A DNA stretch of 64,000 nucleotides from Minutocellus sp. GHC0000111. Taxonomy: Eukaryota. Under the pieces are notes generated by a model. The model saw only the letters and a list, made by a program, of their open reading frames with translations. It did no database searches and was not told the origin of the DNA. The DNA lies in assembly GCA_977018835.1 (NCBI GenBank), contig OZ361261.1, forward strand, positions 434,001 to 498,000. Direction: 5' to 3'. Made by a program: the position numbers and the translations under genes. Position 1 is the first letter of the stretch. The number at the start of each line of letters is the position of its first letter. Positions 13,842 to 50,305 of the stretch are shown piece after piece.

Positions 13842-15542
13842 CTATTTTGGGCACTCGTAACCATCCACCGGATATGTTGGTGGGTAGCACTTGCAGCACG
13901 TTTCCTTGATCCGACGGTATCCTTTCGGGTGGCTGACGTCCAGTAAAGATTCTTGCTGGTCGAACATTTCAACCACATAATCGTATAGCTGCAGGTCATA
14001 ATTATTCTTTGCAGCAAGTAGCTCCCATCCTTCAGTGCCCTTTGCGGGATGGGCTTTCTTCGTTGCATTAACGTTGCGATTCGCTCCTCCGCCTTTGGAA
14101 AGAAGTTCTGCTCGGCACTTTTCTTGGTTGTGAGGGTTGACTCTGTACAACCACCGAAAGAAACGCTCAAAACGGTCCATGCTCTCTTCCATTTTGTCGG
14201 TTAGGCCCACAAAGAACTTCCGCCTCAACACCTCTTTGGCCAAAGCAAGGTCGTCTTCGGACAATGCGTCGATTGGATTGTTTGCCAACTGTCTGGTCAT
14301 CCAATTCTCTTCGGCCATAGTTGACCTTGCGTATTCCTCAATTGTCCAGTTCTGTAACTCGGGGTGATATGTCTCCTCCCAAGAGGCAGTTTGGATGTAG
14401 CAAATCTCGGAAATCGCTCTCTCGATTGGATGTCGAAAGACACCGAAGAATCTCAGCATGTGCGACGTTGAACCCAAAGCATCGGATTCGTGGACAAAAT
14501 TTGATACGATAATTTCTGCCATGCCTGATGAAGGGAAACCGATATCCTTCGCATGCTGAATGCCTTCGACGGTATGAGTGTCCACGTTCACGAACATGCT
14601 CCCGCCAGGTCGGACAATCTGTAAGATTTCGTCATTTTCATGCCCATCGAGTGTGCCAATATTGGACGCTGTGATGAGACGGTGACATGATCCAGCAACA
14701 TCCTTGATTGTTGAACCGCCGCTCTTTGGCACGTGCCAGAATGTTGGCACATCCGATTTATGGTAAGGTTCCGACGTATCTTTGAAATGCGCCATACCAA
14801 AAATGGGAGGGGCTTCAGTATCGTTGGGATCTTGTTCTGGCGAAAGAAGATCGGGGTCGTCTGGTATGATTTGTATTTGGGCATTCCCTGCAGTGCCCGA
14901 TTCGTTTGTTTTGCCATCAGCATTTGACTCGGCATCACCGCTATCGGCAGCACCAGAGGCTGCGGCATCGGACGGTAAACGTAGATGCAGCTTCTGAAAG
15001 CCAGAATTTTGTCGGTTCTTCTTGTTCATTTTCTCTTTCTTTCCGCCTGCATGAACTCGTGGTCTCTCGTTCTCGTTGTACTGTGCGCGTTGAACGACGT
15101 GGTGTCCTTCTTGAACAATTGTTTCGACCCTTCTCCGCACCAAGCCCGGCATTCCAGGAAATTTTATTCTCATTCGCCTTCTTCGGGGGATGACTAAAAT
15201 TAGCAAAAGTACCGAAGCTGCAACGACCAGCGCTTTCTTTTCCCGTCGTCTCTTCCACCAAGGCAACTGCGACTCATCCGAAATGTTTGGGCGCCGGGCA
15301 TGTATCTTGCTATCTATTTCGTCGTATTTCCCACTGGTATCGCGTTGCGTCCGAGGCAAATAGAGACTCTCTCTGTCTTCGCTGTCGTGATATCGAGAAA
15401 CGAGCCGATCCGCGTACGAGCCTTCGGATGATCCGGTCCCAGAGCCCCGGTAGCTATCATTGGAAGAGCTTTTGCGTTTATATTGTGGCTTGTACCTGTC
15501 ACGGCCGCCGCCGCTGTCCGGGTGTTGGTACCGGCTCGCCAT
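13842..15542 (-). CDS. Golgi-type sulfotransferase-like protein
   Basis: Type II TM segment, PAPS-binding motifs FWHVPKSGGSTIK and FRHPIERAIS, then ENWMTR and N.YDLQLY. Confidence 0.85.
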   Translation of the reverse strand: MASRYQHPDSGGGRDRYKPQYKRKSSSNDSYRGSGTGSSEGSYADRLVSRYHDSEDRESLYLPRTQRDTSGKYDEIDSKIHARRPNISDESQLPWWKRRREKKALVVAASVLLLILVIPRRRRMRIKFPGMPGLVRRRVETIVQEGHHVVQRAQYNENERPRVHAGGKKEKMNKKNRQNSGFQKLHLRLPSDAAASGAADSGDAESNADGKTNESGTAGNAQIQIIPDDPDLLSPEQDPNDTEAPPIFGMAHFKDTSEPYHKSDVPTFWHVPKSGGSTIKDVAGSCHRLITASNIGTLDGHENDEILQIVRPGGSMFVNVDTHTVEGIQHAKDIGFPSSGMAEIIVSNFVHESDALGSTSHMLRFFGVFRHPIERAISEICYIQTASWEETYHPELQNWTIEEYARSTMAEENWMTRQLANNPIDALSEDDLALAKEVLRRKFFVGLTDKMEESMDRFERFFRWLYRVNPHNQEKCRAELLSKGGGANRNVNATKKAHPAKGTEGWELLAAKNNYDLQLYDYVVEMFDQQESLLDVSHPKGYRRIKETCCKCYPPTYPVDGYECPK

Positions 15543-15735
15543 CGTTGAAAAATGGAGCGGCGCGAGAGGCGAGAGGCCGACCGAATGACGTCAACCTTTC
15601 GTCACAGAAAGATGACTGGGCGCCAGGCTACCGATCATATCAACATGCAGACCCAGTCAGAACATCATCAAGAGGTGGTGAGAACTAAAACCAAGATACC
15701 TCCAGTGTAAACCATTTACTAGCTAGAGTAACGAT

Positions 15736-18508
15736 TTATGCCGTGAACATCTTGCCCTGCTCTCGATAAAGTTGCTCAGCGAACTCATAAAGAAGGACGT
15801 CATATTTGTTGTGCTCGGCAATGAGGTTCCACAAGTCAGATCCCTCTTCAACATCATCATGCCGATGCTTTAGTGGCCAAGCCCAATTCAGCTTCTTATC
15901 GTGACACTCTCGCTCTGCCTCCGAACGAAGCTTCCAGCCAAAGTAAGCCTCGAATCTGGCCAGCGAGTCGCTCTTCTCATCCATCAATCCAACGAGACAT
16001 TTCCGACGGATGATGGCCTTGGCCACCTCCAAGTGACCTTCATCGATTTCAGATGTATGCTCATTGGAAAGGAAGCGAGTCATCCAATTGCTCTCGCCCA
16101 TCCCACCCTTGTAGTACTCGTCTATAGTAATCTTGGACAGCCCGATGCACTGGATGCCTGAACATGGTAAACAACCGAGCCCGATGATTTTCATCAAACA
16201 CCGAGGCACCATCGTACAGAAGCGACGTCATGAAGACATCAGCCATGCCAGACTCGGCAAGGCCTAAGCTCTTGGCCCGTTGGATACCAGGGCCATTCGA
16301 TGTATCGACATTGACATATTTGATTTTGCTAGGAAATTCCACCTCCTCGAGCATTTCGTCCTTGTCATGACCCTGTCTACCACCGGCATCACTGGCAATG
16401 GTTAGCTTCAAACAGCCTCCGAGGATATCATTCATACTGGCCCCGGCACTTCGCGGAATGTGCCAGTAATAGGCCAAGTCGTCCTTGTGGACCGGGACAT
16501 CATCGACGTCGGCAAGATTGTCGAGTTGTGGTGGTATTTCAACCCAGGCATGTTTGCCTCCCATCCCATCGGCGTACTCCATTCCCTCGTTCTGGCCGTC
16601 AGCACCAATGGATATTTCTTGGGCTTCATCTGGTTCCATTTTGCCATCAATTGTGTCCTGACCCTCGCCGGCATCGGCAAAATCATTCATATTTTCTTGC
16701 TCCGCGTCACTTGCAATGTCAATGTTGGGCTCAAGACCAGGAGTCTCAACAACACCGCCAACATCTTGGTTGCCCTTGTGATGCGCCATGCCTGCCCGAA
16801 TATGATTGGCAGCATCGACGCCCCGTCTCTGTCGAAAGTTGTTCATCGCCCGACCATACTCATCAACATCCATATCGCCAGGGCCCTGAGGCATCCGCTG
16901 ATCGCCCAACACGACGCGTTCCAACCCCAAGAAGATCACTCCGCAGAGTGCCCCCGCCACCAACATGCGCAAAATATATAGAACCTGGTTAAGACGCTGT
17001 TGTTGCGGTGTCTGCGAAACGACGGAGGCCGACGAGGAATTGTGATTCCCCGCACCGCCCATTATTTTCGAGAAGTAGTCATCGCTCTCCAGCGAGGATA
17101 CGGTCGAACCGCCCTTGGACTGAGAGTCAAACTTCTTGTTAGTATGGCGGGGTGATCCTGGTAGAACTGTGTTGCGCAATGTGCAGCACAATCGTCGGGC
17201 GTTGATCCAGCATGGCTCTGTGGCCCGGACGATGTAAACCAACAATGCGGCAATCGGACCGGGTAGAATTGCTTGGATGTTGGCACAGAGGGAAGGGCCG
17301 TGCGTTTGATAGGCCACCGAGGGAACGTAGCGCGACTGCGAACCCCCGCTACTGGCGCGGCTCCCAAAAGAGCGATTCGATGCCACACTCCGATTGCCGT
17401 CGTCATTATGGCCAGAGCCCAGACCGCTGCTCATACCGCCAGCTGCAGCTCCGGCCGCATTTCCACCACGGCGTGAGTAGACACTGCCCGAGCTCTTGTT
17501 GCCGACGTAGGCTGTGACATCAATCTGCTCCAGGGCACCAGAAACCGATCGACTACCCCGGGTGTTGTCACCAACTAGTTTGCTCTCCTTGCCGCCATTG
17601 GCCGCCGCGCCAGCTCCCCGGCTATTGGACAGAATGTATTCCAACCCACCAACGCTTTGTGCGACGCTGGCCGGTCCTCGTGGCCCACTGCCTCCCGCCT
17701 TGGCTCCACCAGCTTGTTGTATGCCGTTCTCCAGTTCCGCCAATTCGGCACTGCGCTCATAGTCATCGTCAGTCATGCGATCGGGCTTGTCTTGATGATT
17801 AGTCAAATTGGGTCCAGGTCCAGAATCGTCGCCACCGCTATCCCTCCGACCGAATTGGGATCCCATCTTGTTGCCGCCACCACCGCCGGTAGCCGTCGAC
17901 CCAAAGTAGTACGCGGTGCTGCCCACGGTATTGCCGGCCAGACTGCTGGTAATTTGACTCATGTCGTCGTCCCGATCGCGGGCGTAGATGGTCGGTCCCT
18001 CGGCCTCGCGGTAGGCCGTGACGCCCGTAATGGCCGTGGAGCGGGTGATGACCGATTGGTCTTCTTCTTCCTCTTTGTCTGGCATGTTGTCATCAGATGC
18101 TGTGCTGTAGACTCGGCTGGAGTAGTTTGCGGTTCGACCGGCCGCCCCTGCGCCGCTCCCAAAAGGGGTGGACGTGGAGCTAAAGGTCGGAGGTCGTGCT
18201 GATGGTGCTTCAACTTGCGGCGGGGCGGCGTTGTTCTTCGCTAGGGCTGATGATGTCTTGTTCTTTGCGCGGCCACTCACACTGTCCATCAGAGACAAAT
18301 CTTCCATCAGCGTGTCCAAGTCAACGCTGGCACCGCTCCCACCGTCTGCGGCACCGCCCACCGCTGCCGGGGTGGACTCGTCCAACCGACCCAGACCACC
18401 GGCGTTACCGGAATTGGGCCGGGCATATGCACTTGTGCCGGTACCGGCGCCGGTGGCTCCACGGCCTCTCCGTCGAGAGGACGACGTCTTCCAGTTCCGT
18501 TGAGACAT
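15736..18508 (-). pseudogene. Sulfotransferase-like gene with a frameshifting internal deletion
   Basis: YWHIPRSAG and FRHPVHRAV are joined out of frame to LSKITIDEYY..SNWMTRFL at 16136-16140. About 18 or more codons present in the two in-window paralogues are missing. Confidence 0.75.
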
Positions 18509-19080
18509 GGCGAGACTGAGAGGTTATTAGCTGGTGTTATATGTGCTCGATTTCACTCTGTTTTGTGCCTGGCAGTCCAGTATCTTCCCTCTGACCTGCC
18601 GGCGCACATACGTCTGTAGGAATTCGAGAAAATGACTTCATGGTGCTTTGCGCGATGACTTCGCTTGCTTCAGCTTCGCTTCGTGTCCAAAATGAATATG
18701 CACAAAAAGCGGATTGTTTAGTGGTTCAACATTCCAATTTGACTTTTTTTGTTTGCTCCCTTCCTGAACTGACTGGCCGATGATGAGACTCTGACGATGG
18801 CAGCAGGCAATGTATCCAAGGCATTGACTACAGCAAATCTTAAATAGATGAACTAATTTCCAAAGAAGCCCGGCAACTTTTATTAATTTTCTTTTGACTG
18901 ACCATTTTCTCCGTGTTTTCTCTCAGTGCTGGCTCACACCCCACCACGATCTTCTTCTCAAGTTTGCGCACACTTTTAAGGCATTCTTGAAACGAATTTG
19001 GCAACCTACAACGCATATATGTATGTTCAATATATGTTGGCATCCATGTCCGCTTCTCCCTCACATAATCCATCGTATCT

Positions 19081-22129: not shown

Positions 22130-23485
22130 ATGCCGAAGAAGAGCAGGCGCAACCGAGCGAAGGGAGGGGCGGCCGGCACGGGTCGCGGGGCTTCGGGAGT
22201 CGGTAGCTTCAACAGCAGTACCCAACGAGGAATGGACCTTGTGTCGTACTGTCCTGACAGGGATCGGAAGGTAGCGTTGTGGATGTACGAGTGGTCGGCG
22301 GCCAAAGATCGTCTCATGAAGGACATTCTCGATGCATTGGCTGAAGATCCTCGCATTCATGCCCTGTTCGATCCAGACTGCCTCTCTCCCACACTCGTCA
22401 ATTTATTGGAGTATTCCACTGCGAACTTTGTCACAATGACTTCTGGCAGCACGCCACACTCACTATTAGATGCTACGGCTCTCGCTGCTACCAAACCCTT
22501 ACTGGTTGAGGCGGCGAATATGGTTTTTAGGAACGGGTGCAAAACCAGCCTCCCTCCTCTCCAGCGCCGGAAAAAGTACGTGGAGGGTATTATCGATGAT
22601 GCCCGTGGTCTGATGGCCATCGGCCGAGGAGATGTGGCGGCTGCTCTGTGCAACTTTGGGCTGAATTGTGAGCAAACTAAGATATTTTGCGACGCGTTCC
22701 TCGCGGAGTGGGACTGTAATATTCACTCAAGCGATGCGTTTGTGGATGGCAAGGCGAAACGTGCGATGAAGATTATCTCGGAGAACGAGACAAATCCGAT
22801 GCATACTCGGGCCCATGCGTTGGTACTTCGAGGTATGATGTCTCATGAGTTTGAAGAGTGTCCAAGTCCAGCCACTGCCGCCTATTTCCGCAGGGCACTT
22901 CGATACAGCCGCAAAATTGAGGCAGGCGAAATGCGTTCCATCGACTTTGTTTTGCAGGGTGTCTCGTTACAACTTGACGTCAAGGAAAGAGTTGAGCTGA
23001 ATTTGGATGTGGCAAAGCGGTTACTTTCCTTCTATGAAGGACCAGGTGCATGTGTGGGGATGACGCTTTTGGAGAGGATTTCACATTTTGATAGAAGTTT
23101 CCCTTGCATTCCAAACTACCTGGCTATCGGAGGGGCACAATGCGACCACTGCGGCAAAACGGCCGAGGAAGCTGGTCTTCCCTGCTTGCACAAATGCAAG
23201 CAATGCCGCATGGCTCTTTACTGCAGCGTCGAGTGCCAGGCCGCCAGATGGTCTGGCGGTGGACATCGGGAGCACTGTAAGAAGTTTGGGCGATTTGGGG
23301 TTGGCGACAAGCTTGTTTTGTTTGGTTTGAAGAAACGATCTGACCTCAATACCTCCCTGGTCGAGGTAGTTGGCAAGACTATGCCCCATCGTTTGAACGT
23401 TCGTATCTGCTTCCCTCCCGAGCACGAGGGCACCGTCGTTGCTGCCAAGAAGACGAATCTGCGCCACCACCGCCCGATGAGGTAG
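22130..23485 (+). CDS. MYND zinc-finger protein
   Basis: CDHCGK..CKQCRMALYCSVECQ..W..H.EHC followed by an SH3-like GLKKRSDLN tail. Confidence 0.85.
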   Translation: MPKKSRRNRAKGGAAGTGRGASGVGSFNSSTQRGMDLVSYCPDRDRKVALWMYEWSAAKDRLMKDILDALAEDPRIHALFDPDCLSPTLVNLLEYSTANFVTMTSGSTPHSLLDATALAATKPLLVEAANMVFRNGCKTSLPPLQRRKKYVEGIIDDARGLMAIGRGDVAAALCNFGLNCEQTKIFCDAFLAEWDCNIHSSDAFVDGKAKRAMKIISENETNPMHTRAHALVLRGMMSHEFEECPSPATAAYFRRALRYSRKIEAGEMRSIDFVLQGVSLQLDVKERVELNLDVAKRLLSFYEGPGACVGMTLLERISHFDRSFPCIPNYLAIGGAQCDHCGKTAEEAGLPCLHKCKQCRMALYCSVECQAARWSGGGHREHCKKFGRFGVGDKLVLFGLKKRSDLNTSLVEVVGKTMPHRLNVRICFPPEHEGTVVAAKKTNLRHHRPMR

Positions 23486-23944
23486 GTAGAAAAGTACAAC
23501 CAAAGAAGAGAAATTTCGGGAAACAAACAAATTGAATCATCCAAGAGCCTGCCGTCACTGTCATTGTGGTAGCGAATAAGATTCAAATGCTTGAGTATAT
23601 TTAGCAAACGAGGCGGTCATGTTCTACATTAAATATACGACTTCATTTATCATTCCAATCTCTCGATCTCGTATCTGCTTCCCTCCCGAGCACGAGGGCA
23701 CCGTCGTTGCTGCCAAGAAGACGAATCTGCGCCACCACCGCCCGATGAGGTGATGAGGTAGGTAGAAAAGTACAACCAAAGAAGAGAAATTTCGGGAAAC
23801 AAACAAATTGAATCATCCAAGAGCCTGCCGTCACTGTCATTGTGGTAGCGAATAAGATTCAAATGCTTGAGTATATTTAGCAAACGAGGCGGTCATGTTC
23901 TACATTAAATATACGACTTCATTTATCATTCCAATCTCTCGATC
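23401..23944 (+). repeat. Tandem duplication (268 bp + 276 bp) of the MYND gene 3' end and UTR
   Basis: 23401-23668 is repeated at 23669-23944. The only difference seen is an extra GATGAGGT in copy 2. Confidence 0.95.
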
Positions 23945-34529: not shown

Positions 34530-35924
34530 TCACTTCCAGAACATTGAGCCCTGGAGCTCATGCAATTCTTGAGCGTACTCATACAGCCGCACGTCAAATG
34601 TATTTTGATCCCATAGTGCCTTCCATTCCGAGGAGCCTTCACGCACTCTCGGGTGGTTCACTTTCCCCTCCCAACCCCAACCTAATAATCTCTCGACGCA
34701 GCGTTCGCCCCATTCGCCCTGACTTTCCAGAACAATGTTCCATCCCAGAAAGTGAACGAACCGATGAAAACTTTCCTCCTTCTTTTCTAGCAGTCCGACC
34801 ATCACTTTTGTTCGTAGTACCTCCCTCGCCACAGCCTCGTCCTGAACCGGTAGCTCGCCATTAATCTTTCCGCTGAGATACCGCGTCAGCCAGTTGTTCT
34901 CGGCAAGGTCCGATCTGGCATACTTGTCCAACGAATCCAGACCAAACCGTGCCAGTTCAATCTGCAGCTTCTTATCTTGCAACATGCGGTAATACAAACT
35001 GGCTCCGCGATCGATCGGATGTCTCAAAAGAGCAAACGCTCGGCCTCGGTTAGATGAGTCGAAGAGTTGCGACACTTCCTGAAGATATGACGATACAATT
35101 AGATCAAGAGGACGGAACTTTGCAAGATGCAATGCCTTGGCGCGTTCCAGCCCGAAAGGCGACGTTGTGTCAACGTTGACGTATTTCTGCCCCTTATCAT
35201 CTGCTACCACCATGAGCGTATTGCCAATATTTTCCTTGCTGGTTCCAAGCACTCCACGCTCGGAAGCTATTGTAAGCCCCAGACATTGTGAGGCAATGGT
35301 CTTCATCGTCGCTCCGCCTGATCGTGGTATGTGCCAGTATAGTGGCAAATCCTTTTCGGTAATTTCGTTGGACGTGTCGGCAAGATTGACCAACGCGGCA
35401 GGGATGGGCACACTCCGACCCAGGTATATGGTTGGTTTCGACGGATCGGACTCGAGAGTCATGGTATTATTTTGTTCCCAACCCAAGGCAGATGTCTGTG
35501 TGAACGAACCTCGCTTATTGTTGAAGCCACTGGTATCTCTTATTCGTTTTCTTCGACTGGTGACCGGCATGGCATCGCTGCTTCTTTCCGGTGGTCCCTG
35601 AACAACATTTGCCATTTCCAGCGCCTTGCGAGTTGTGAACAGGCACGCACTGGATGCAAACAGCAGTACCATGATGCGCTTCCCCTTCGCTGTGGCATTG
35701 AGCGCCCGCGTTTGTCTCTGTTCGTCGTTTTCGAGTTTGCCCAATGTTGCATCGGCATCTTTGGCATCTCCATTTAAAAGCTTTGCAAGTTCGTCGTGTT
35801 GTTGGTGGTGGTGTTTGTTGGGCGGTTCCTTCACCGGTTTGCGATGCCGCCGTATCCTTGACCTCATGGAGTCATGGAACGGCGTCGCTATTGTACGCAG
35901 CATCGACGCGGTCGTTTGTACCAT
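34530..35924 (-). CDS. Golgi-type sulfotransferase-like protein
   Basis: Motifs YWHIPRSGGATMK, LLRHPIDRGASLY, ENNWLTR and N.FDVRLY. Confidence 0.85.
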   Translation of the reverse strand: MVQTTASMLRTIATPFHDSMRSRIRRHRKPVKEPPNKHHHQQHDELAKLLNGDAKDADATLGKLENDEQRQTRALNATAKGKRIMVLLFASSACLFTTRKALEMANVVQGPPERSSDAMPVTSRRKRIRDTSGFNNKRGSFTQTSALGWEQNNTMTLESDPSKPTIYLGRSVPIPAALVNLADTSNEITEKDLPLYWHIPRSGGATMKTIASQCLGLTIASERGVLGTSKENIGNTLMVVADDKGQKYVNVDTTSPFGLERAKALHLAKFRPLDLIVSSYLQEVSQLFDSSNRGRAFALLRHPIDRGASLYYRMLQDKKLQIELARFGLDSLDKYARSDLAENNWLTRYLSGKINGELPVQDEAVAREVLRTKVMVGLLEKKEESFHRFVHFLGWNIVLESQGEWGERCVERLLGWGWEGKVNHPRVREGSSEWKALWDQNTFDVRLYEYAQELHELQGSMFWK

Positions 35925-36429
35925 GTTGGCTGGTCGATTAATTATGGTTTGCGAAATGAATGGGGGGAGATTGGGTGGGTGGGGCTAATGCTTGAACGAG
36001 GAAACGAGGAATGCATGTAATGACCGCTGCTGTATCTGCACAAGACGAAGTTCAGATGGGGCTCGCCGCAGCAGAGCCACAATTGTGTATGAATCTGCGA
36101 CTTGCACGAAACAGCTTGCTGGTAGTGGTGCCTTGGGCGGGTACGCCTGTCGTGCCGTTCAATTTGCGGTCATATCAAACGGATATCAAGCCGCCGGTTG
36201 CGAATGACCATGGCGCAAGGTCCGGTCAAATGTACTCTTTCAATTGCGTACGTAGGCCTAGTACAGAGCCTACTACGTAGCTACGTTGTACCCCAGAAAA
36301 GCTCCCAAAAACCAGAAAACCCCAAATGTAGTTGATGGAAATCGACCCGTTTGATGAAACGCTCCCCCCCGTTTGATGGAATTTGACCGCGTAAACAGTT
36401 AGTCGATCAAACGCTTCCGGGGCCATTTT

Positions 36430-36915
36430 ATGGCCCCGCTACACCGTGACAACATCGCTCGAGCTCTCTCTTGCATTAATAAATACCACCCAACCATGTC
36501 GCTTCCCAGCCGCGACACCGCAGCAGCCTCGCGGCCACAGCGCCGCAGCAGCGACATTGTCATAGAGAAGGGTGTGCGTGCGGGCGCAAAGCGATTCCGG
36601 CTGTGCTTTCCCGGCGTAAACAGTAAGAAGAAAAAAGGGTGGAAAGCCCAACCCGACGTTGGGTACTCTCTTTGCAACGATTTGCGGCCCAGTGCGGCAA
36701 GGAAAAGGAAGAAGCTGGGATACGATGATGCCACCAACCTCAACAATAGATTGAAGGCATACTATGCAATAAAATGTGGAAAGTACTCAGCGGATGACTT
36801 GAAAATTCAGAGCGCAGCCAATCTTATGAGCATGGGAGTGAGAGCTAAGGCTGGCACAACATCCACTTACTTTGATTTGGCGGTAGAGATTTACAACAGC
36901 GAGAACGGTGCCTAA
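36430..36915 (+). CDS. Small basic protein with an AP2-like DNA-binding pattern (element accessory ORF)
   Basis: FPGVNSKKKKGWKAQ...RKKLGY...AYYA resembles the AP2 pattern (Y/F)xGV...WxA...LGxF...AY. An AT-rich shared terminator region follows (36916-36997). Confidence 0.55.
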   Translation: MAPLHRDNIARALSCINKYHPTMSLPSRDTAAASRPQRRSSDIVIEKGVRAGAKRFRLCFPGVNSKKKKGWKAQPDVGYSLCNDLRPSAARKRKKLGYDDATNLNNRLKAYYAIKCGKYSADDLKIQSAANLMSMGVRAKAGTTSTYFDLAVEIYNSENGA

Positions 36916-36997
36916 AATAGTAACATGATAACCTATTTACATGAAAATACTAATGCACTTATGATATTATTATAAGTTACATAATACACATTTATGA

Positions 36998-38491
36998 TTA
37001 CAAGTTACCAGCACCAGCAACAGCCTCCTCGGTGGGAAACTCCGTTACAGCACGTGAACCATCGGCGACTGTCTTGAAAACGGCAATCTTTTTAATCTGC
37101 TCTACAATAGCAGGAGTTCCCTCTCTGTCCCCGTCTGCCATGTATTGCAAAAGAATTTCAAGGGCTGCCCACCTTCCAACTCTCTTCATGATGTGCAAGT
37201 CAGCACCACACATCCTCGCCCACAAAGTCCCGGAGTACCGGATCGAATGCGATGAGTACTCGAGCCACTTTTCATCCCCAGTAATTTCATAAGCTCTGTC
37301 AAAAACAATCTTGACATGCTGCTCATAGGTAGCAGCAGTGATATCAAATATTTTTTTGTCATCGTCGGCTAGTCCATTAGTCTCAAGGTAGTTGAACCAG
37401 TCCAACAAGAGATAGACAATGTCAAACCTAGCCTGATTCTCAATAGTGTTGCTGTGGAATCGAATGGGATACTGTGCATCAACAAATCTTATGTTTCGGC
37501 TCTTCCAATTTCTCCAAACAAGCCTTATCCAGTGAGGCAGAGTCGATCCTGTGAAGTATTCATCTTCCATCGGCGGGTACTCCACCTCCTTCTGCAAAGG
37601 ACAATGTGTAGTAATGCAGGACGCCCGGCCCATCACGTTGAGCTGGAGCATCATCATCACCCAAGTGCGTTTCTTAACCTCTTCGTGCTTCCGAGGATGG
37701 TTCATGCAAGCGTCATGTAGAAGCGGAAGCTCGGTGATGAGAAAGGACGGTGCAGACTTTTTGGTGCGAAAATGACCACGCATCCATTTCTTTATCTCCG
37801 ACGAAAGCGTTGCGTCCTTTCGATCAAGTTTTGGCCCACCAAAAAGAACTGAAATGGAAGATATTGCAGCAAGTTTCAGCCCCAAAGTGCCCCAGTTGTT
37901 ATTTCTGCCTGCGACGTTTACACCACCAAAATTGGTCGTCGTGCTTGGTGATGAGTGAAGGTAACTGCACCAGTCCACGACGGCACCGGCATCCGGCGCC
38001 ATCCACCGCAACCGTCGCACCTGTCCCTCTTCAAGATCTTCGTCGGTAACGTGCGCCGGCACAATATCCTCGAGGCGGAAGGAGCCATTGTCGTACGCTT
38101 CGATCTGTTCCTTGACCTGAACGATGTACTTGGTGTATTCGTTCTCGGGCATGTGCTTGAGGAGGAAGCACTCCAACTCAGCGAAGTACTTCACCGCGCT
38201 AACTGTTATGGCGTCACTGCGGAAGCGATTGCAGTGCCTCTTCAGCGCGTCGATGTTCAGTATATTTTTGGAAGTGATGGCGTTATTCGGCTCGAAGTGG
38301 ATCTTCCATGCATAAAGTAGGACACACGCATTCGGCACCGTTTCCTTGTCGCTCTCGGTTGCCTCTCGCCAATGCTTGACCGCCTCGTCGTACACACGCA
38401 AAATGCGGAATTCCATGCCCTCCATCGGAGCAGGAGCAGGACGATTTCGGCCAGCATCGGCCCTTGCCCGAGAAGCGGAACGATCTGCCAT
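36998..38491 (-). CDS. Tyrosine recombinase/integrase
   Basis: Catalytic residues appear in order: R (MGRAS), K (NWKS), HxxR (HSIRYSG), W (GRW) and Y (QYM). The ORF is uninterrupted, and the first ATG is at 38491. Confidence 0.85.
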   Translation of the reverse strand: MADRSASRARADAGRNRPAPAPMEGMEFRILRVYDEAVKHWREATESDKETVPNACVLLYAWKIHFEPNNAITSKNILNIDALKRHCNRFRSDAITVSAVKYFAELECFLLKHMPENEYTKYIVQVKEQIEAYDNGSFRLEDIVPAHVTDEDLEEGQVRRLRWMAPDAGAVVDWCSYLHSSPSTTTNFGGVNVAGRNNNWGTLGLKLAAISSISVLFGGPKLDRKDATLSSEIKKWMRGHFRTKKSAPSFLITELPLLHDACMNHPRKHEEVKKRTWVMMMLQLNVMGRASCITTHCPLQKEVEYPPMEDEYFTGSTLPHWIRLVWRNWKSRNIRFVDAQYPIRFHSNTIENQARFDIVYLLLDWFNYLETNGLADDDKKIFDITAATYEQHVKIVFDRAYEITGDEKWLEYSSHSIRYSGTLWARMCGADLHIMKRVGRWAALEILLQYMADGDREGTPAIVEQIKKIAVFKTVADGSRAVTEFPTEEAVAGAGNL

Positions 38492-38835: not shown

Positions 38836-39630
38836 ACGTTGTACCCCAGAAAAGCTCCCAAAAACCAGAAAACCCCAAATGTAGTTGATGGAAATCGACC
38901 CGTTTGATGAAACGCTCCCCCCGTTTGATGGAATTTGACCGCGTAAACAGTTAGTCGATCAAACGCTTCCGGGGCCATTTTGTGGCCCCGCTACACCGTG
39001 ACAACCCAAACAACATCGCTCGAGCTCTCTCTTGCATTAACAAACACCACCCAACCATGTCGCTTCCCAGCCGCGACACCGCAGCAGCCTCGCGGCCACA
39101 GCGCCGCAGCAGCGACATTGTCACAGAGAAGGGTGTGCGTGCGGGCGCAAAGCGATTCCGGCTGTGCTTTCCCGGCGTAAACAGTAAGAAGAAAAAAGGG
39201 TGGAAAGCCCAACCCGACGTTGGGCACTCTCTTTGCAACGATTTGCGGCCGAGTGCGGCAAAGAAAAGGAAGAAGCTGGGATGCGATGATGCCACCAACC
39301 TCAACAATAGATTGAAGGCATGCTGTGCAATAAAATGTGGAAAGTACTCAGCGGATGACTTGAAAATTCAGAGCGCAGCCAATCTCATGAGCATGGGAGT
39401 GAGAGCTAAGGCTGGCACAACATCCACTTACTTTGATTTGGCGGTAGAGATTTACAACAGCGAGAACGGTGCCTAAAATAGTAACATGATAACCTATTTA
39501 CATGAAAATACTAATGCACTTATGATATTATTATAAGTTACATAATACACATTTATGATTACAAGTTACCAGCACCAGCAACAGCCTCCTCGGTGGGAAA
39601 CTCCGTTACAGCACGTGAACCATCGGCGAC
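38836..39630 (+). mobile_element. Truncated tandem second copy of the YR element (direct repeat of 36283-37069)
   Basis: About 790 bp near-identical to copy 1, with 11 substitutions, a 1-bp indel and a 9-bp indel. It includes the accessory ORF (ATG->GTG) and the last ~24 YR codons, then stops abruptly. Confidence 0.95.
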
Positions 39631-41642
39631 CAACCTCGGCGCCGACGCCGTATTCCAGCAACGTGACGGCGGTGCCACCGCCGCTACCACCGGGACCACG
39701 GACCAGTTCCAGTTCCGGCACGGCCGCCCGGGCCCACGCCTACGCGTCAAGTCGGATGGCCTCGTCGAGCTTTGGGGATTTTCACGTCGGTCATTTAAAC
39801 GGCGGCGCCGGGAGCTCTGCTTCGGCGGTGTATTATTCCGGCAATTCGTCGGCCACAACTGCCGACCACGTGTCGTCGGCTGCTCCAATGTCGAGCGTCG
39901 GAATACCGTCGCAGCAGCGATCGCTAAGCACGGACGATGCCGACATTGCCGCTGGGCTCTACGTGGGCGGTGGCAGAGGACGGCACGTCGCTGCATCGAC
40001 GTCGTCCTCGAAGCATCAGCAACACCGCAGCAGCACCGGCGCTCGTCGCCGGGCGCCGCGGCAGAATGCTCTGGATGCCTTCCGGGATTCCGAGGCGGAC
40101 TTTTTGAAGCTCAGCAGCGTCGGCAGCGTGGCGGGCAGTACTGGCACGGCGGGATACATGAGCGGGGCCGAGAGCAGCATCGGGACCATACCGACCCCAC
40201 CCACCAGTGGCAACATGGTCTTGAACTTGCCCACCTTGGACAGCAAGGGCGAGGGCGGTGGGAAGGGCGCGGATATCGACCACCGGGAGCAGATACTTGT
40301 CCTTGGCATTGATATTTCGCACCTGTCTCGGAAGAAGCAGTTCATCTATTGTGCTGGCGGAGTGTTTTTCTTTTTCGTTGCTCTATGGGTTCCTCCAGGA
40401 ACTCATTAGCGTGACATTGTGCTGTCGACAGCTGGGACTCTTCTTAGCAGTGGCGCAATTTTCGGGATATACCTTCTGGAGCTATCTATTGCGAGAGTAT
40501 GTCAATGAAAAATAGGCCCGGCACCGAAGAAGAAGCATGAGGATGAATGGCGATGGTGGTGGCAATCATGCATTGGAGTTGGATGGCGGTGCACATGGAG
40601 AATCGCCATCGGCTATATGTTGGCGCAACGGGTCCAGTATAGTTCGATCTATCTTCAGAAGAGGTGGCAAATCACCAAGTGCTGGGAAGAAGGGACCCCA
40701 GGGCAAGGGAACTATTCCCGTTCCTATCGCAACTTATCTCGGCCTTTCCATCTTACGTGCAATTGATCTCGGTGCTACCAATCTGGCAATGCAATATGTC
40801 ACGCCAAGACCCTCATGAAGTCTGCCAGGGTCGTCTTCACTATGCTCTTCGGCGTTATCGTAGCCAAGCGTCGATATCAGCTCGGTGACTACGCCGTCGT
40901 AATGATCATGGTCGCTGGTCTTGCCCTCTTTATGCATGCCGATGCCAACTCGAGCGCCGTCTTTCAGCCCTTTGGCATCATGCTCCTCGTCCTTTCGCTC
41001 AGCTGCGATGGTGCTATATCCAACGTGTCCGAGAATTTAATGAACCAGCTTGGTGTCGGCCAAGACGAATTCATCTTCCGATTGTACAGTATCGCTACTC
41101 TTGCCATTTTAGCCGCGGCAACATTCAAGGGTGACATGACAGAGGGAGCTAGATTCCTTTTCCTTCCTGGAACTTACGATGAGATCAACAATGGCGAAGA
41201 GCCTACGTGGTCAGTGGCTAGAAAAATATTTGTCGTGGTTCTTTTTTCTACCATGGGATTTTTCGGTTCTAGCTGTTCCGCTGCCATTACCAAGCACTTT
41301 GGTGCCCTTACCATGTCTATTACCTCTACCGCAAGAAAGGCAACAACACTTTTCCTTTCGTTTGCTTTCTTCAATAACGTCTGTACCCTCGAGCATATTA
41401 GCGGTATTGTTCTCTTCATCACAGCACTCATCATGAAGAGTCTCAGAGCGAGTCGAAAGGGACGTCATCGTAGTCATTCCAGGAAAAAGCGACTGCGAAG
41501 ATCACCAGAAAGAACACCACTTGTGAACTCCACGAGTAGCATTGAAATTGGAAGTGGAGGTGCCGATGCTGCTGCACTTCATCAGCGAAGGACTGGCAAC
41601 AGCCCTATGCGCCATCCCAATCGTAGCTCCAATGTTGTATAA
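39631..41642 (+). pseudogene. SLC35B-family (PAPST2-like) nucleotide-sugar/PAPS transporter pseudogene
   Basis: Motifs VLGIDISHL..QF..GGVFFF/SLLYGFLQELI, TNLAMQYV..AKTLMKS and FGAL..ITSTARKATT. The 5' end is replaced by element DNA. Lesions are a +1 shift near 40375, TAG at 40513-40515 and a ~7-nt loss near 40800. Confidence 0.8.
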
Positions 41643-42574: not shown

Positions 42575-44364
42575 TCATTTGTTGGCGCTTGTCATCAGTT
42601 TCTGCTTTTTAACAGCTTCGGTCCTAGTCCTTTTCCTTGTTCTTGCCACCCGAGAGTTTCGCTCCCGCCTCTCCTCGACCTTTGGATTGGATGCCCTCTC
42701 CTCAGCCTTGAACTGCGCCGTCTGTTGGGCCTCATGTCCCTTGACGCCCTGAGTCCGACGATCTTCCTTAACGCCCTCTTGGTGGGCTCGCTCTACAAAC
42801 GATTCGTCGAGCCAACAGATGCCGCCCCATCCATTCTTCACTAGCCAAATGTGTTGGTCCAAGATGTGATCTTCGAGTAAGTGCCACTTGGGCGTCATGC
42901 TAATACCGATTGCCCGTGCTTGCTTGAGGGCACTTGCAATCAATGCTTCAAGCTCTCTCACAGCCTTCTTTGCCTCTCATCATCCCATTTCATGCACCAT
43001 TTCAGAAACCTGGAATGTGTTGCGTCAAGAGTGTGGAGCAAATTAGAGCAAGCTTTGCAGAGCTCTTTGATGTCGTCATCCGTCATGCCATCTTCCTCGC
43101 GATTGTGCTCTAGGAGAGTTCCTTTGGTGGAGGTGTTGTGGTGGATGAACTCTGTTGTCCTTGGTTTCTTCTTGTTGTTGCCATCAGAAATGTTAATAGA
43201 TAAAGCTCTCCAGCATTCTGCCAGCACTGCCCTTATTTTACCTGAGTCGGCCGCCTCAATGCCGGCCTTTTTCAGGAAATGGAAGTGAGGGGCATCGTCA
43301 TCCTCGGCATCATCGACAGCTCCCATCTCTGGCTCGCCATCACCGTGCTTCTGACGATTCTTCTCAAAGTGCTGCTGCATGCATGCTTCATGTGTAGCGT
43401 CCTCTCTTGCAATGTCAGCTTCGTCCTCATAACAGGGCACACAGTCCTCGTCTTCGTCGTCATCGTCCTCACTGATCTCGCCGGCCTCCGTCGTGGTCAG
43501 GGTGCCCACCGTCCCAACATCGTCGTCATTGTCCCACCCATCGTCCTGGCCGTTGTGCCCACCAGGGAACTTCTGGGCCTCGAGCAACATCTGCCTGTTG
43601 ATTTCGTAGTCCATCGCCGCATGTCCCACCGATATATGTGGTGCGACCGACTTGAGGAATGCATTACATGCCTTCGTCAAATTGAGCCGCGGCGGCGGTG
43701 TTTCGAGGCGAAATTGTTGCTCGACCGTGACCATGTCACGTCGAAAGCCAGCCATCCATCATCATGGAGAGCGTCGGCTGCACGAGGATTGATGGAACCG
43801 AGGCGAACAAATATGCTCTTTTTGCATGGGGTTCGCTGAACGTCGTCGGCAAGGCAGTGTCTTGACACCATTTCATCCCATCCATTCTGGTTGTCTGTCC
43901 TCACAAAAAACACATCGCAGTCTTCGTGTTTCTTCTTCTTCAAACCCAAGATGCCCGCAGTGCACATGACGGCGCCGTACATGATGGGACTGCATCCCAA
44001 CACATTCATCAAGGAGTCGTTGTTGTTGCCGATGAAATTGTAGTAATGAAGTTCCTTTCTGCGAAGACGGACGAGCAGTTCAGCCAGGGCGTCCTGCACC
44101 GCAACTCTGTCTGCGGTGTTGACCGCGGGATTGCGGCCGTTATTTTTTTTTAAACCAGCGAAAAAGCTGAAGACGATGGAGACTAATTGTCAGCCTATCT
44201 TCATCTGGAGTAGCTGATTTTGCGCTCATACAGTCAGCTAGCTCCTTAAAGGTTGCCATCGCACCCTTCATCCGAGTAGCATGCGAGTTGGTCCGGCCGG
44301 TTTTAGGTGAGGCACTCCCCGAATAATTGTCAAAAAGTTCCTCTAATCTTTTGGTTTGATTCAC
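42575..44364 (-). mobile_element. Degenerate, internally deleted transposase-like gene (Transib/RAG1/Chapaev-like C-terminal motif)
   Basis: Four consecutive frameshifted ORF pieces. The last has TPKWHLLEDH..G..DESFVERAHQ (H-x4-H followed by an acidic catalytic-type E). The region is too short for a full DDE core and is depleted in Tyr. Confidence 0.55.
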
Positions 44365-45180: not shown

Positions 45181-48100
45181 TCATTGCTCCTCTTCATCCT
45201 CGTCCCCCTCTTCATCTGATGAATCATCAATGGCCAACTCTTCATCATCACCATCTAATCCGGTTTCTTCCTCTTCTCTATCGCTATCCCCGCCCTCATC
45301 ATCATCATAGGTAATAGTGCGATTCATGCACCCTCTTCTCTCATCTCTTCGAGGATTTGAGAATGGGCTTCCTCCCCGAGATACCGAGGATCTAGAGTAA
45401 GCACTTTGTTGCGATGGTCAGGATTCAAGCTCTGTCGATTGAGATTGTTGTCATCAGATATTGGTAGCATTTTGATGTCGCCTGCCAGAACATGGGATAC
45501 ATAAAATGTAGCCCTTGCCCGAGCTGCCAAAGTTTCCTCCGGATGATACCACCAGTATCGCGCTCCGTCTACTCTGTACAGGTAAGTGCCATCGCACATC
45601 ATTTCCCCCGTTTCTTGATCTGCATACGGCAATCCATCCCATCTCACCAAATAGTAGTCATACTCTGGATCGTCATTTACATCTACCGCGCCATACCCAC
45701 CGACCTCAATCAGGCCTGCTTCTCGAGATGAAACCGTTTCAAGGGTATCTTCCTTGAGCTCATCTATTTCATCGGGGTCTGATTTGTTTGTTGTTTGGAC
45801 TGATGTTATTTTCCAATCATTCAATCCCTCAAATATCTTCCAATATTTGCATTCTTTATTCTGCTTGAATCTCGGCTGCTCCTCGTCGCACTGCGGCCTT
45901 GTTTGTTCCGAGTTCCCAAGAGGTGAGCAAATTGTAGTGAGCGCGGATTCCGGTGTATTCTTTGTTGCGGACAGCAAGAGGAGGTGATATTGCTGCAAAT
46001 ACACTTTGGTGCTTGACATCTTCTGACGTTCGAACGTGGTTGTGCCTTTCACTTATTCTCACTTCATCTGCTTCTCGCTTCCGTCTCTTGTTGCCCACAG
46101 TTTTGACACCATCTTTCCTGTCAGGCTGGTCTAGCAGGCGCTGCATTTCCACCGCGAGGCTTTTGTGCTGGCCATCTTGATACAACTGTGGCTCCATCTT
46201 CTGGTCAGCATAAATGGCATCACAGTCTACATCAGGGGTCATTATGTCCCGCATCCGAGCAATGAGATATGCCTTGTTGGCTGCATTGAGGCCATCAACG
46301 TGATCTTTTCCGTGCCCTGGCGCCCCAAGAGCTCTATCGATAGTAATTTTATACTTGACGCTCAACCAAGAGAGAAAGAGTAAGACCACCGCACAACGAT
46401 ACTGCTTGGTGCAGCCGTCAGAGCCATCATAAATAGTAGAACCAATTTTCAACACCCCCGACTGAAGTAAATGATTGATTTGTACCTGCATGTGCTGATT
46501 TGTGCTGTACCTAGGTACGCATTCTGCATCTTGTCATCGGCGAGGTGAGCGTGGAATTGCATGGCTACCTTCTCATCTACACTACCCATCTCCTCGAGAT
46601 GAGCTGTGATTTCATCGTCACTCATTTCTTTCATTATTTCCAAAGCTTCCTTCTTCCAGTGCTCTACCGAGCAACCTTCCATCGACACTGTAGCGTTACC
46701 ACCGAAGTGCATCGACATAATCTCATTGTTGAGAGCCGCAGTGAGTCTCTCTGCGTAGTCTCGGTGGGTTAGCACGTCACCGGGCTTGGACTTCCAAACC
46801 TCCTTCCTCTCATTGCCGGTGTGGGAGTTGGATAAAATAAGAACATGGTGACGATGGTAAGCATATTTTTCGAGCGCTTTCAGGTAGTGTTGTTTGATAA
46901 AGATTCCAATCGGTTCAGATCTAGCCATGAGATATTTTCTTGTAGAAATCTTTCCGGCTTTTGGCTTTGGCACCTTGCTGTCAGGATCGTCTCCGATTCT
47001 TTGCTCGTAAGTTTCAATAAGTTCATCACATTTTGGGCAAGACTTGCTACGTAGAGGTAGCTGCTGCTCTGGATGAGAGCGGCATGAAGTAACACTCTCG
47101 TAAGTGTGAAACTTTATGCGGTCATCGTCGGCAGCCTCACCGGCCTCCTCGGGCATGACTTCGTAGGCAGGGCAATCTGAACATCGTCTCAAGACACAAC
47201 TCCAATGAGGAAATTCAAAGCCTTCGACATTGCCACATTGGATGCAAAGTAAAGCGTCCTTTGGATGTGGGTGTGTCGGACTCCCATCCTCATTCGTCGT
47301 CTTGGCCTTGTAACTTTGGTACCTCTCTTCCGCGGCCTCTCTCTCCGCAGAATTTTCGGCGACCTCACCAAAATTATCAACAGCGTCCTTCATTCTCTTT
47401 ATGCGACGACGACGATAGGCATTCAGAGAAGCCTGGTGCCGTTTCATAATAATGCAATACTCACACCCGCACATTACCTTGTGAGATTCTCGCATAGCGA
47501 CGAAGTTGGGCGGGATGATGGCTCGAAACTTCGTGTCGGATGTTATCTCCCTTCCTCGATCGTCACGAGCCTCCGGTATTTTGAGCGGCCCCTCGTACAT
47601 GCTGTTGTAGAGCTCTCGAATAGAGCACATCATCAACCTCTTTCGCACACGAACCTTCTCTCCGGTGTTGGCATCGCGAACGAGAATAGTGTCTTTTATT
47701 GTTGGAGACTCGACGATTGAGGGATGATTCTTTAGCCACTCTACTACTTTTTTCTGGAGCTCTTTGGACACCTTGCTCCACCCCTTCCTCTTTTTAACAC
47801 GAGAATACATTAGCCCTTCCTCTTTTGCTCCTACTTTGAACTTTGTCTTTCGATCCTTTGATTTCTTTACTCGCCGCTGAACCGTAGCTCTTGACCCTGG
47901 AAGCACCTTCTGGTAGTCAGTTGTTGTAAGCTTTGGAGTGCTCGAGGTAGAGGTAGCGGTAGAGGCAGCATTGGCATTGCATGCCTCAACTATTGCATCG
48001 TACAACACTTGCAGGGCGCTGGACTGATCATCATTTACCCGTCCTTTTGCAGCACCGTCACTCTTGAATAGTTCAGATGCGTGGGAGGTCAAGTTATCGA

Positions 48101-49454
48101 GAATCTGCAGCTTCTTTTCCGTATTATCCGGCACCTTCAGTCCAGAACCGAGAACAATTTTCGCTGCTTGCGGCTTGTTGGCAAATAAACGAAGGGCATA
48201 GGCCTGAACTTGCTCATCGCCAACGCTTTGGACAGCATTCAATATTACATTAGCTGCTCGTTCCTTTGCCTTTCTTATGGCATCGGCGGATGTCCTCGGC
48301 TGATTGTTCCGCTGATTGACATCAAAGGCAGAATAATTTATTGTTGGAACGAGAAGATTGTTGCCTCTTCTTTTTGCTCTCTCCTCCTCTCTTGATGCAG
48401 CTCCCAATCTCGATACTACAGGCATAGAAGAAATAGTAGATACCATTTCATTGCCTATAGCGGCAGCATCGCCGGTTAGGCTACCACTCTTGATTCCATC
48501 CTTGAGAGCAGTCATCATCAAATGAAAACAACGACCGACTGCATCTGATCCGGCAGCTCCGACCTCGACACCCTTCAGCACGTCCCCAATGCTCTTTCCG
48601 ATGCCATCAATACCGGTAGAAGTGCCGTCCAATGATGCAAGAATGGCTCCTCCGGCCGCTGCTCCATCAGAATCTGCCGCTGCATGTGGACCAGCACGGT
48701 CAGAGCCCACAGCAGACATGTCGGTGCTAGCTGTTGCTGTTGCATTGGAAGTGCCAGGGCCAACCGGATCGCGAGCGCGAGGAGGGCCGTCAGGAAAGAG
48801 TTCCGATGCGGAAGGAAAGGTGCTGGGCGATGGGTTGCTGCACTTGTCGCATGTGCTGGGACAATCGCAAGTACCAAAACAGAACGTGGAGATGGCGGAT
48901 GTGTCTGCCGGATGCGGAGTACCAGTACAGTCGGGAAGGGATGGCGGGATAGCTAACAACGATTGAGACCTTGATATCACCATTGTGTCAGTGGGTGGTA
49001 ATGGCGATGAGCGAAGTGTGCGGCGTCTACCATCCGCTTGTGCGCCGGCGGGGAGTGGTGCTGGTGGATGGAGCGGTCCGGTAGTGCGGCCGGTGCGTTC
49101 GTGGTCCGACGATGAGGATGAGGATGAGGACGCATCGTTCGCGATGCCAGCGGCAGCAGCAGATCGTTTACGCGTCGATGGTCGCATCGATCGGCCTTTG
49201 GTGAGAGTATGGGCGGCGGTGGACGAAGCGGAGGTATCGTCGTTTGACGGGGCGGATGGTTCGGACGACGTCCTTGTCGTCACGTCATTATTTCCGGGAG
49301 GCGAGGATGAAGAATGAGGGTTGGAAGAAGCTGATGCAGCAGGCGTCTTCCGAGCCTGTCTCTGCTGTCGCAGTCTTTCCTTCTTCGCCCTCTCTCTAGA
49401 CTCCTTTCGGGAGTATTTCTTGCCATTGCTGGTCTCTTCCTTTCCGTCGGTCAT
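45181..49454 (-). pseudogene. Sola2-like DDD transposase pseudogene (~1400 codons)
   Basis: Motifs MCGCEYC, C..C..CPAY, HRDYAE..EIMSMHF, SDGCTKQYR and PGHGKDHVDG (three catalytic-type Asp). Lesions are an 8-bp insertion at about 46511-46518, a deletion near 45882 and a frameshift near 45340 before the acidic tail. Confidence 0.7.
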
Positions 49455-50305
49455 GGTCTCGCAAAAATCGAGCGGCCGTGGTTTTTGCTTGATTTTTCCC
49501 CCTTTATTGCTCAGCGAGTTTGGCCACAGGTCTTGCTACGTCCCCTCTCTTCAGATGTCGAAGAATGGGGACATGTCCAGTTTGTTGGCAAAGAAGTTAT
49601 CCAAGTGTCATTTATTTAGGGGGTAAAATGCTGTTGAATAACCTAAATATAAATCAAAACAATCAACCTGTGTTCGAGTACGCGAAAAAGGGCCGCGGAT
49701 GAGAAGTGATACCGTGAGAGCCACAGCCGCCCAATCCACCCAGAAATGCAGAGACACACGCCCAAGATATGTATGAAAATGTTTGTATGGTTGATTGTTG
49801 TGGTTTTTGTTCGTATCCGCCCCCGAATCGGCCGCCAATCGTCATCTTTTTTTTTTGCGTGATTTTCCCCCCTCGATAGCTCAGCCTGTGTGCGGAATTT
49901 TCGAGCCGGCCCTTCGATGTCCCCAACCTTGAATGTGTCTAGAGTGGGGACGTAAGCGAGGCAGGCCGGCTCGATCAAGTCTTTTTGCCATATTTCAGGG
50001 GGAAAAGTTGGTCCGGCAGGAAATTGCGACTTTTCCCGTACTTCGCCGCGTTGGAAACACGGACGACGGAAAGACGAATGTCCAGTTTTTGGGTCGAGCG
50101 GCTCACCTAAAGCTGGACCACGACACATGTAAAAAACACCCGTTACTTAGACTTTAACAACAACATGCTTCTGCTCGCATTCAACTCATCGGGGCACCCG
50201 GGCCATCTGCTGTAGCGCAACTATCCACACGAATCTGACTACGTGCCGGAACAAAGGAAATCTAGCAAAAAAACTATCTCTATTTTCGCAGATGGGTGCC
50301 CCCTC
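45181..50305 (-). mobile_element. Sola-like DNA transposon with one terminus retained
   Basis: Upstream noncoding A-tract region ends (minus strand) 5'-GAGGGGGCACCCATCTGC at 50305, matching the GRG/GAG termini described for Sola elements. A partial inverted copy lies at 50191-50210. No distal TIR was found. Confidence 0.5.

Follow-up and report, generated by a model that had tools for sequence, protein, structure and literature searches.

Why do two copies of a repeat that stand side by side in the genome of Minutocellus sp. GHC0000111 differ almost entirely in one direction and at one dinucleotide, and what kind of process might be responsible? The repeat is found in a window of 64,000 nucleotides (positions 434,001 to 498,000, forward strand, of contig OZ361261.1 in assembly GCA_977018835.1; coordinates below count from the first letter of this window) and belongs to a mobile element with an open reading frame (ORF) predicted to encode a tyrosine recombinase (YR). 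An initial annotation had suggested that copy 2 was hit by a mutator changing TpA to TpG or CpA, i.e., opposite in direction to fungal repeat-induced point mutation (RIP). The locus is a real and well-polarised case of early-stage TpA hypermutation of mobile DNA, and a family at a later stage, found in the same window, lends it further support.

One of Two Repeat Copies Is Hit

Copy 1 (36283..37069, plus strand) is the left part of the YR element, while copy 2 (38836..39630, plus strand) is a partial second unit, arranged head-to-tail at a spacing of 2553 bp and ending inside a host gene. Aligned over these coordinates the copies differ by 11 substitutions, and copy 2 in addition has a 1-bp deletion and a 9-bp insertion; the same 9 bp are present in other copies and are missing from copy 1. 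Nine of the substitutions (38982, 39041, 39045, 39124, 39225, 39283, 39322, 39325, and 39386) read TA in copy 1 and TG (4) or CA (5) in copy 2, and none runs in the reverse direction, which agrees exactly with the number, positions and direction first described. All nine private hits are thus in copy 2 and zero in copy 1. The remaining two substitutions are 36690C/39251G and 36701G/39262A. Given that 11% of the repeat consists of TA bases, nine of 11 changes are unlikely to fall on them by chance (P = 1e-7).

The hits form a patch at 38982..39386 in which nine of 16 TA steps are changed on either strand (strand order +----+++-). Counted over the whole repeat 9/44 TA steps are changed, all of them inside 36429-36825 (9/16) and none among the 24 steps downstream or the four upstream. 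This clustering is supported by the rank span of the hits (P = 4e-4) but less so by their span in bp (P = 0.07), and runs of hits on the same strand were not significant among the nine changes (P = 0.26). On the A-bearing strand eight of the nine sites are TAY, where Y is a pyrimidine (5 TAT, 3 TAC), and one is TAA, as originally noted. Taken by itself the copy pair gives only marginal evidence of a TAY preference (8/48 vs. 1/40, Fisher P = 0.03; within the patch P = 0.06), which is established solely by the second, high-copy family described below.

The patch overlaps a small ORF that has no Pfam family. In copy 1 (36496..36915, plus strand, 139 aa) it has the ancestral, Tyr-bearing state, and in copy 2 (39057..39476, plus strand) the TA changes result in one I>T, one Y>H and three Y>C replacements, next to one R/K difference. 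The conversion of Tyr to His or Cys had been correctly described. The loss of an ATG codon had not: what turns into GTG at 36430/38982 is an upstream ATG, each copy retains the ATG at 36496/39057, and neither ORF is interrupted.

Copy 2 Is the Derived Copy

The direction of change can be read from homologues of the small ORF (seven matches, one of which is copy 2's own protein) and from sequencing runs of environmental samples, of which 5 of the 24 listed were examined, with X13-X20 set aside for their small word shares, all as assembled contigs and not as raw reads; outgroup states at the DNA level come from the tables of these run contigs only. At the three Y>C sites Tyr is present in all five diverged proteins that cover the C-terminal half (P0004-P0008, 56-83% identical) and in P0029, and at the I>T site P0009 has Ile. 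P0016, another nearly identical copy, from a contig of 5.3 Mb, has all four Tyr residues. Runs X1, X3, and X5 have the letters of copy 1 in their contigs, and even contigs of the copy-2 type read A at 38982; X1 contigs have a third letter (A) at 36480. Because diverged homologues keep Tyr or Ile where copy 2 has Cys or Thr, sequence comparison confirms that copy 2 is derived and TA ancestral, and the change is TA>TG/CA and not the C to T change in copy 1 that RIP would have left. The initial annotation thus arrived at the right polarity, although by arguments that do not hold: the ATG of copy 1 does not polarise the changes as the small ORF is open in both copies, and neither does the stop-free YR ORF, which lies between the copies and overlaps only copy 1, by about 70 bases that are identical in copy 2. 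At 36701/39262 the outgroups agree with copy 2 (Lys), and the copies therefore carry slight ordinary divergence as well.

The part of the repeat 3' of the patch is identical between the copies, as had been pointed out, but it is probably not untouched. Both copies have CA at 36897-8 and at 37012-3, where other copies carry TA. The shared state at 37012 is a Thr>Ala replacement in the tail of YR and is polarised by P0010, P0018, and P0020; at 36897 the X1, X3, and X5 contigs have T, without outgroup polarisation. As both copies share these two further TA-type states, the 3' part is probably not immune to TA-type hits, and the shared states were likely acquired before the duplication or homogenised later.

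A High-Copy Family Shows the Same Change at Larger Scale

Only 3 kb from the repeat pair lies a frameshifted copy of a high-copy, transposon-like family (42600..44200, limits approximate, minus strand), in which 21 of 46 reconstructed TA steps are TG or CA, these 21 having been recognised as TA steps through their variation. Its TpA observed/expected (o/e) ratio is 0.33, and the ratio of TAY to TGY has its minimum in the window here (0.16-0.28 at 42.5-44 kb). The family has 40 protein matches; their clusters hold as many as 80 members, and the ENA contigs that encode them mostly measure 0.1-5.3 Mb. By a rough measure the read depth of the family is about 170 times the single-haplotype depth. 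For counting, 159 family proteins, i.e., the 40 matches and 119 listed members of 10 clusters holding 312, were mapped onto the one DNA copy; filters of 80% identity and 40 residues were passed by 135 proteins, giving 483 codons at a depth of at least 10. The counts that follow are observations and not independent events, since copies share ancestry.

At codons where Tyr is ancestral the family has Tyr 235, Cys 235, His 202, Ser 1, and Arg 0, so that 437 of 438 changed states are transitions. Among steps readable on both strands, 18 of 22 have the TG and the CA state each present, in at least three copies. A step that has TG and CA as its two derived states but never CG requires a TA ancestor, and this excludes both RIP and CpG decay as the source of change in the family. 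Decay of CpG was also rejected on account of the missing Arg state at the Tyr/Cys/His codons and a CpG o/e of about 1, and GC-biased gene conversion because it has no dinucleotide specificity and A>G outside TA is at just 0.0033.

Change of A to G was seen at 886 of 3271 TpA observations (0.27) and at 64 of 19245 other A, an enrichment of approximately 80-fold. Per informative A the rates are 0.375 for TAT, 0.369 for TAC, 0.119 for TAA, and 0.050 for TAG, on a background of 0.0033 for other A>G, 0.0025 for C>T and at most 0.001 for transversions; A>C outside TA amounts to 4/18562 (0.0002). The preference for TAY over TAR, where R is a purine (45 vs. 22 sites, 0.36 vs. 0.09, P = 2e-7), bears out the context specificity first proposed, and remains at sites not chosen for their variation (0.23 vs. 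0.04, P = 3e-4). At the level of the step RTAY is most hit and YTAR is spared. A possible second target is AAT, changed to AGT in 26 of 843 observations (0.031) at 5 of 19 sites and accounting for five of the nine listed non-TA variants that are shared in the family; other AA contexts are lower still (AAC 0.009, AAA 0.002, AAG 0). The order of contexts is thus TAY far above TAA, then TAG, with AAT as a weak second target, and both strands are hit about equally.

Neighbouring hits in the family showed no strand coordination, neither overall (288/539 on the same strand vs. 281.8 ± 10.2 after permutation) nor within 30 bp (100/201 vs. 98.6). Co-mutation within 30 bp was, on the other hand, in excess (267/366 concordant vs. 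232.5 ± 5.9), i.e., hits are clustered. The load differs between copies more than expected (0.22-0.93 in 57 proteins, P = 8e-10). A block of seven steps has 18 different patterns among 25 copies and one pattern in six of them, which makes it likely that most hits followed amplification and that some were inherited. Copy 2 would represent an early stage, and the high-copy family a later stage, of one and the same process.

Real Sequence, Concentrated in Mobile DNA

In favour of a base-calling or assembly artefact of the long-read assembly it can be said that copy-2 letters are found in no X1, X3, or X5 contig, although such contigs lose variants; for that reason their absence was also dropped as evidence for an unmutated allele. 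However, a contig from Illumina RNA reads of a wild sample taken in 2016 (run X6; 172 bp, depth 2.7) matches 39142-39313 of copy 2 with 0 differences across four diagnostic sites, two TA-derived and two of the other kind, so that the copy-2 letters are not a sequencing artefact; this support is thin but independent. Moreover, high-depth short-read contigs of four runs are polymorphic at the same sites of the high-copy family, and of the 15 rows listed 10 are of the TA/TG/CA type, three are CG-type and two are transversions. An artefact is therefore highly improbable. Run X6 assembled only the mutated copy-2 small ORF, which is possibly transcribed, or represents DNA carry-over.

The initial annotation placed the change in repeated or mobile DNA and named single-copy DNA as a control. 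Single nucleotide polymorphisms in the flanks are of the TA type in 5 of the 28 rows shown, as compared with 9/11 in the repeat (P = 4e-4), a control that omits five rows of its table and includes some rows in a poorly aligned stretch. In host genes (46 of 55 proteins, 3005 codons) Tyr is kept in 606 of 639 observations, and changes at TA targets are at 1.8%, below the general rate of 5.7%, i.e., there is no TA-type excess. In this small control the change is confined to mobile DNA.

Possible Mechanism

Near-pure transitions in a context of three to four bases are best explained by enzymatic deamination of adenine, and we consider it reasonably probable that a putative enzyme of the host carries out this deamination at TpA within integrated transposon DNA. 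Such an enzyme would be drawn to regions where chromatin is silenced or foreign and not to paired repeats, over many cell generations would act on both strands in small events that are separate from one another, and the resulting inosine would be fixed as G at replication. Once TG or CA has formed the step would no longer be a target, hence CG would never appear, and the gradual loss of Tyr, Ile and TA-containing signals could slowly inactivate mobile DNA. That only one of two adjacent copies is hit argues against repeat pairing, and thereby against a reverse RIP in that sense, and for an influence of local chromatin or position; that strands are hit independently suggests duplex DNA as the substrate or many small separate events. 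A defence function may be envisaged. In its widest form the proposal would be that diatoms have an adenine-editing genome defence, in which a nuclear enzyme recognises some four bases (RTAY best), is directed to integrated mobile DNA independently of repeat pairing and edits the two strands, one small patch after another, until no TpA is left; this is more tentative and falls a little short of being probable.

Several observations do not sit easily with deamination by a host enzyme. The letters fit a lesion on A or on its partner T, between which they cannot tell. A deaminase acting along one exposed strand should leave strand-coordinated clusters, and none was found. Amphioxus ADAT2, a natural ADAT2 with activity on DNA, is reported to prefer GAA and TCG and not TAY (PMC10354150). 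The small ORFs of both copies and the YR ORF remain open, so that inactivation is not evident at the locus. The overdispersed load could reflect copy age, the family analysis is built on protein sequences mapped to one DNA copy, and selection blunts the control in host genes, which weakens it.

Error-prone patch synthesis by a polymerase eta-like enzyme, recruited to transposon DNA during repair and placing G opposite T at WA motifs, would account for the patchiness of the hits and for AAT as the second-best context, an order of TA over AA that resembles the WA motif and the clustered A:T mutations of somatic hypermutation (signature 9) (PMC4686820). It is nonetheless unlikely, since one synthesis tract should mutate one strand and coordination was not found, the AAT count comes from five sites only, and the same paper describes changes of A to C as well as to G at WA, with many A>C, unlike the nearly pure A>G seen here (437/438 transitions). 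About as unlikely is a writer enzyme that marks TpA in silenced DNA, by modifying A, or T (e.g., to oxidised thymine), with mutation as a by-product when the mark mispairs or deaminates. The decay of CpG provides a parallel, as there too a palindromic dinucleotide is changed slowly and on both strands independently, and the preference for RTAY and sparing of YTAR would fit an enzyme that reads duplex DNA. The rate, though, is very high for passive decay, and the process in the alga Bigelowiella natans is reported to be active in certain lines but inactive in others (Mettrop et al., bioRxiv 10.64898/2026.01.13.699255).

Editing of A to I in element RNA followed by reverse transcription would agree with the preference of ADAR-type enzymes for U before the edited A, as referred to in the same preprint, but both strands are hit equally (Cys 235 vs. 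His 202), the unit has no reverse transcriptase, copy 2 is a truncated tandem unit, and 18 distinct patterns in 25 copies point to hits after insertion; editing of RNA is accordingly a very doubtful source. Even less can be said for a fungal-type RIP (CpA>TpA) acting on copy 1, perhaps through the DNMT4 enzymes of diatoms, which are RID-related and described without an assigned function (PMC9998398). Formally the CA/TG vs. TA differences match what RIP leaves, but the TA state is found in outgroups and other copies, and in the high-copy family TG and CA at the same step point to a TA ancestor, so that the likelihood of RIP is close to nil. Among the explanations weighed here deamination of adenine thus remains the preferred one.

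The Mobile Element and Its Surroundings

The unit of 2553 bp consists of the small ORF (plus strand) convergent with the 497-aa YR ORF (36998..38491, minus strand; 535 aa from an upstream ATG), and is followed by the partial second unit. An AlphaFold model of YR from an alignment of 30 sequences has a mean predicted local distance difference test score (pLDDT) of 85.5, and its best Foldseek match is Cre (E = 5e-7). Across the 30 sequences R289 and K330 are invariant, and H415, R418, W441, and Y450 are conserved in at least 90%, residues whose catalytic roles (R-K-H-R-W-Y) we take to follow the Cre pattern. The Cre-like predicted fold together with these residues is the reason why the ORF is called a tyrosine recombinase, as its structure model indicates. 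Neither YR nor the small ORFs nor the tested proteins of the high-copy family reached the threshold of any Pfam family, and a PDB sequence search with the YR profile gave no real match. YR is part of a wider family (185 representatives at E ≤ 0.001), of which 1 in 27 scanned passed the Pfam integrase cut-off. TA-type changes in YR are few (T170A, T494A, and Y56C). DNA relatives of YR and the small ORF were looked for in metagenome contigs, where two scans gave 86 and 337 pattern matches and no confirmed one.

With its tyrosine recombinase and a unit that has neither reverse transcriptase nor DDE transposase the element resembles Cryptons, and it may be regarded as a candidate member. It differs by the extra small convergent ORF and by its 790-bp direct repeat, which resembles a partial tandem unit and not termini of 5-6 bp. 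CryptonS elements of stramenopiles are described with terminal direct repeats of 5-6 bp, mostly TATGG, and no long repeats (Kojima and Jurka, 2011, PMC3212892). No clear terminal repeats were seen in the present element, the ends of which are not fixed.

The insertion is accompanied by an empty allele: in the run contigs inserted and empty alleles are at similar depth (64 vs. 65 in X1, 130 vs. 126 in X3), and empty-site alleles are visible as loose ends at 36215 and at 39630/39633. A UAA-family (SLC35B-type) transporter gene at 39555-41642 appears to have had its 5' end, together with the region upstream, replaced by the insertion, and the end of copy 2 contributes an in-frame ATG for it at 39555. 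Elsewhere in the window, long transposon-like ORFs of 1028 aa and 242 aa at 45324-49535, for which no Pfam family passed the cut-off, have a host-like TpA content (o/e 0.61, 42 RTAY) about 1 kb from the depleted high-copy copy and are apparently an unhit neighbour. A tandem duplication of about 270 bp at 23401-23944 has zero mismatches and one gap. Three ORFs (13842-15590, 16061-18523, and 34530-35984) are alike by eye in their C-terminal region, and the one tested had no Pfam match.

Relation to Known Systems and Significance

The initial annotation allowed that the process might be undescribed. The same signature has, however, been reported in B. natans, where de novo TpA>TpG/CpA hypermutation, raised about 1000-fold in mitotic lines, hits integrated DNA of nucleocytoplasmic large DNA viruses (NCLDV) as well as virophages, including a single-copy region; TpA-depleted transposon-like genes elsewhere are also mentioned, and ADAT2 is proposed, not shown, as the enzyme (Mettrop et al., bioRxiv 10.64898/2026.01.13.699255). 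As far as the preprint describes them the systems share A:T>G:C transitions restricted to TpA, confinement to foreign DNA, unevenness between lineages or copies and a proposed deaminase. They differ in host and target, a rhizarian with viral insertions there and a likely diatom with transposons here, and in evidence, which is de novo there and comparative here. That the host is a diatom is suggested by the marine origin of the runs and by a plastid-targeting motif at the start of the ORF at 20389. The main text of the preprint says nothing of a TAY preference, of AAT as a second target, of independent strands or of patchiness below the kilobase; its supplements (Table S2) could show them. In the literature searched this one 2026 preprint on an unrelated alga is the only account of the signature; no report of TpA hypermutation in diatoms was found in open-access literature, and the searched passages of PMC7884421 (Rhizoctonia) and PMC10661471 (a review of deaminases) have nothing on it.

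With RIP of Neurospora and other ascomycetes the process has in common that transitions are dense, context-specific and gathered in repeats and transposons. In RIP both members of a duplication are typically mutated, whereas only one copy is hit here, and RIP changes C to T at CpA, creating TA and stop codons, which is the opposite direction. The A>I>G chemistry would be shared with DNA deamination by TadA/ADAT enzymes. Adenine base editors have a TA/YAC preference. Amphioxus ADAT2, in addition to its different context, is reported to deaminate C as well (PMC10354150).

The finding extends the TpA mutator from viral insertions of a rhizarian to transposons of a likely diatom and adds constraints on its mechanism, i.e., the TAY preference, near-pure transitions, strand independence, patchiness, and the targeting of one copy. 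As the mutated copy is separated by 2.5 kb from an unmutated one, and an empty allele is present, the locus may serve as a good test case. The process would distort the dating and annotation of transposons in such genomes. A natural enzyme converting A to G in chromosomal DNA would, if it exists, matter for the biology of genome defence and for base editing, and if this alga and Rhizaria have the process in common, it would amount to an ancient equivalent of RIP and APOBEC throughout the stramenopiles, alveolates and Rhizaria (SAR), with a natural DNA adenine editor at its core.
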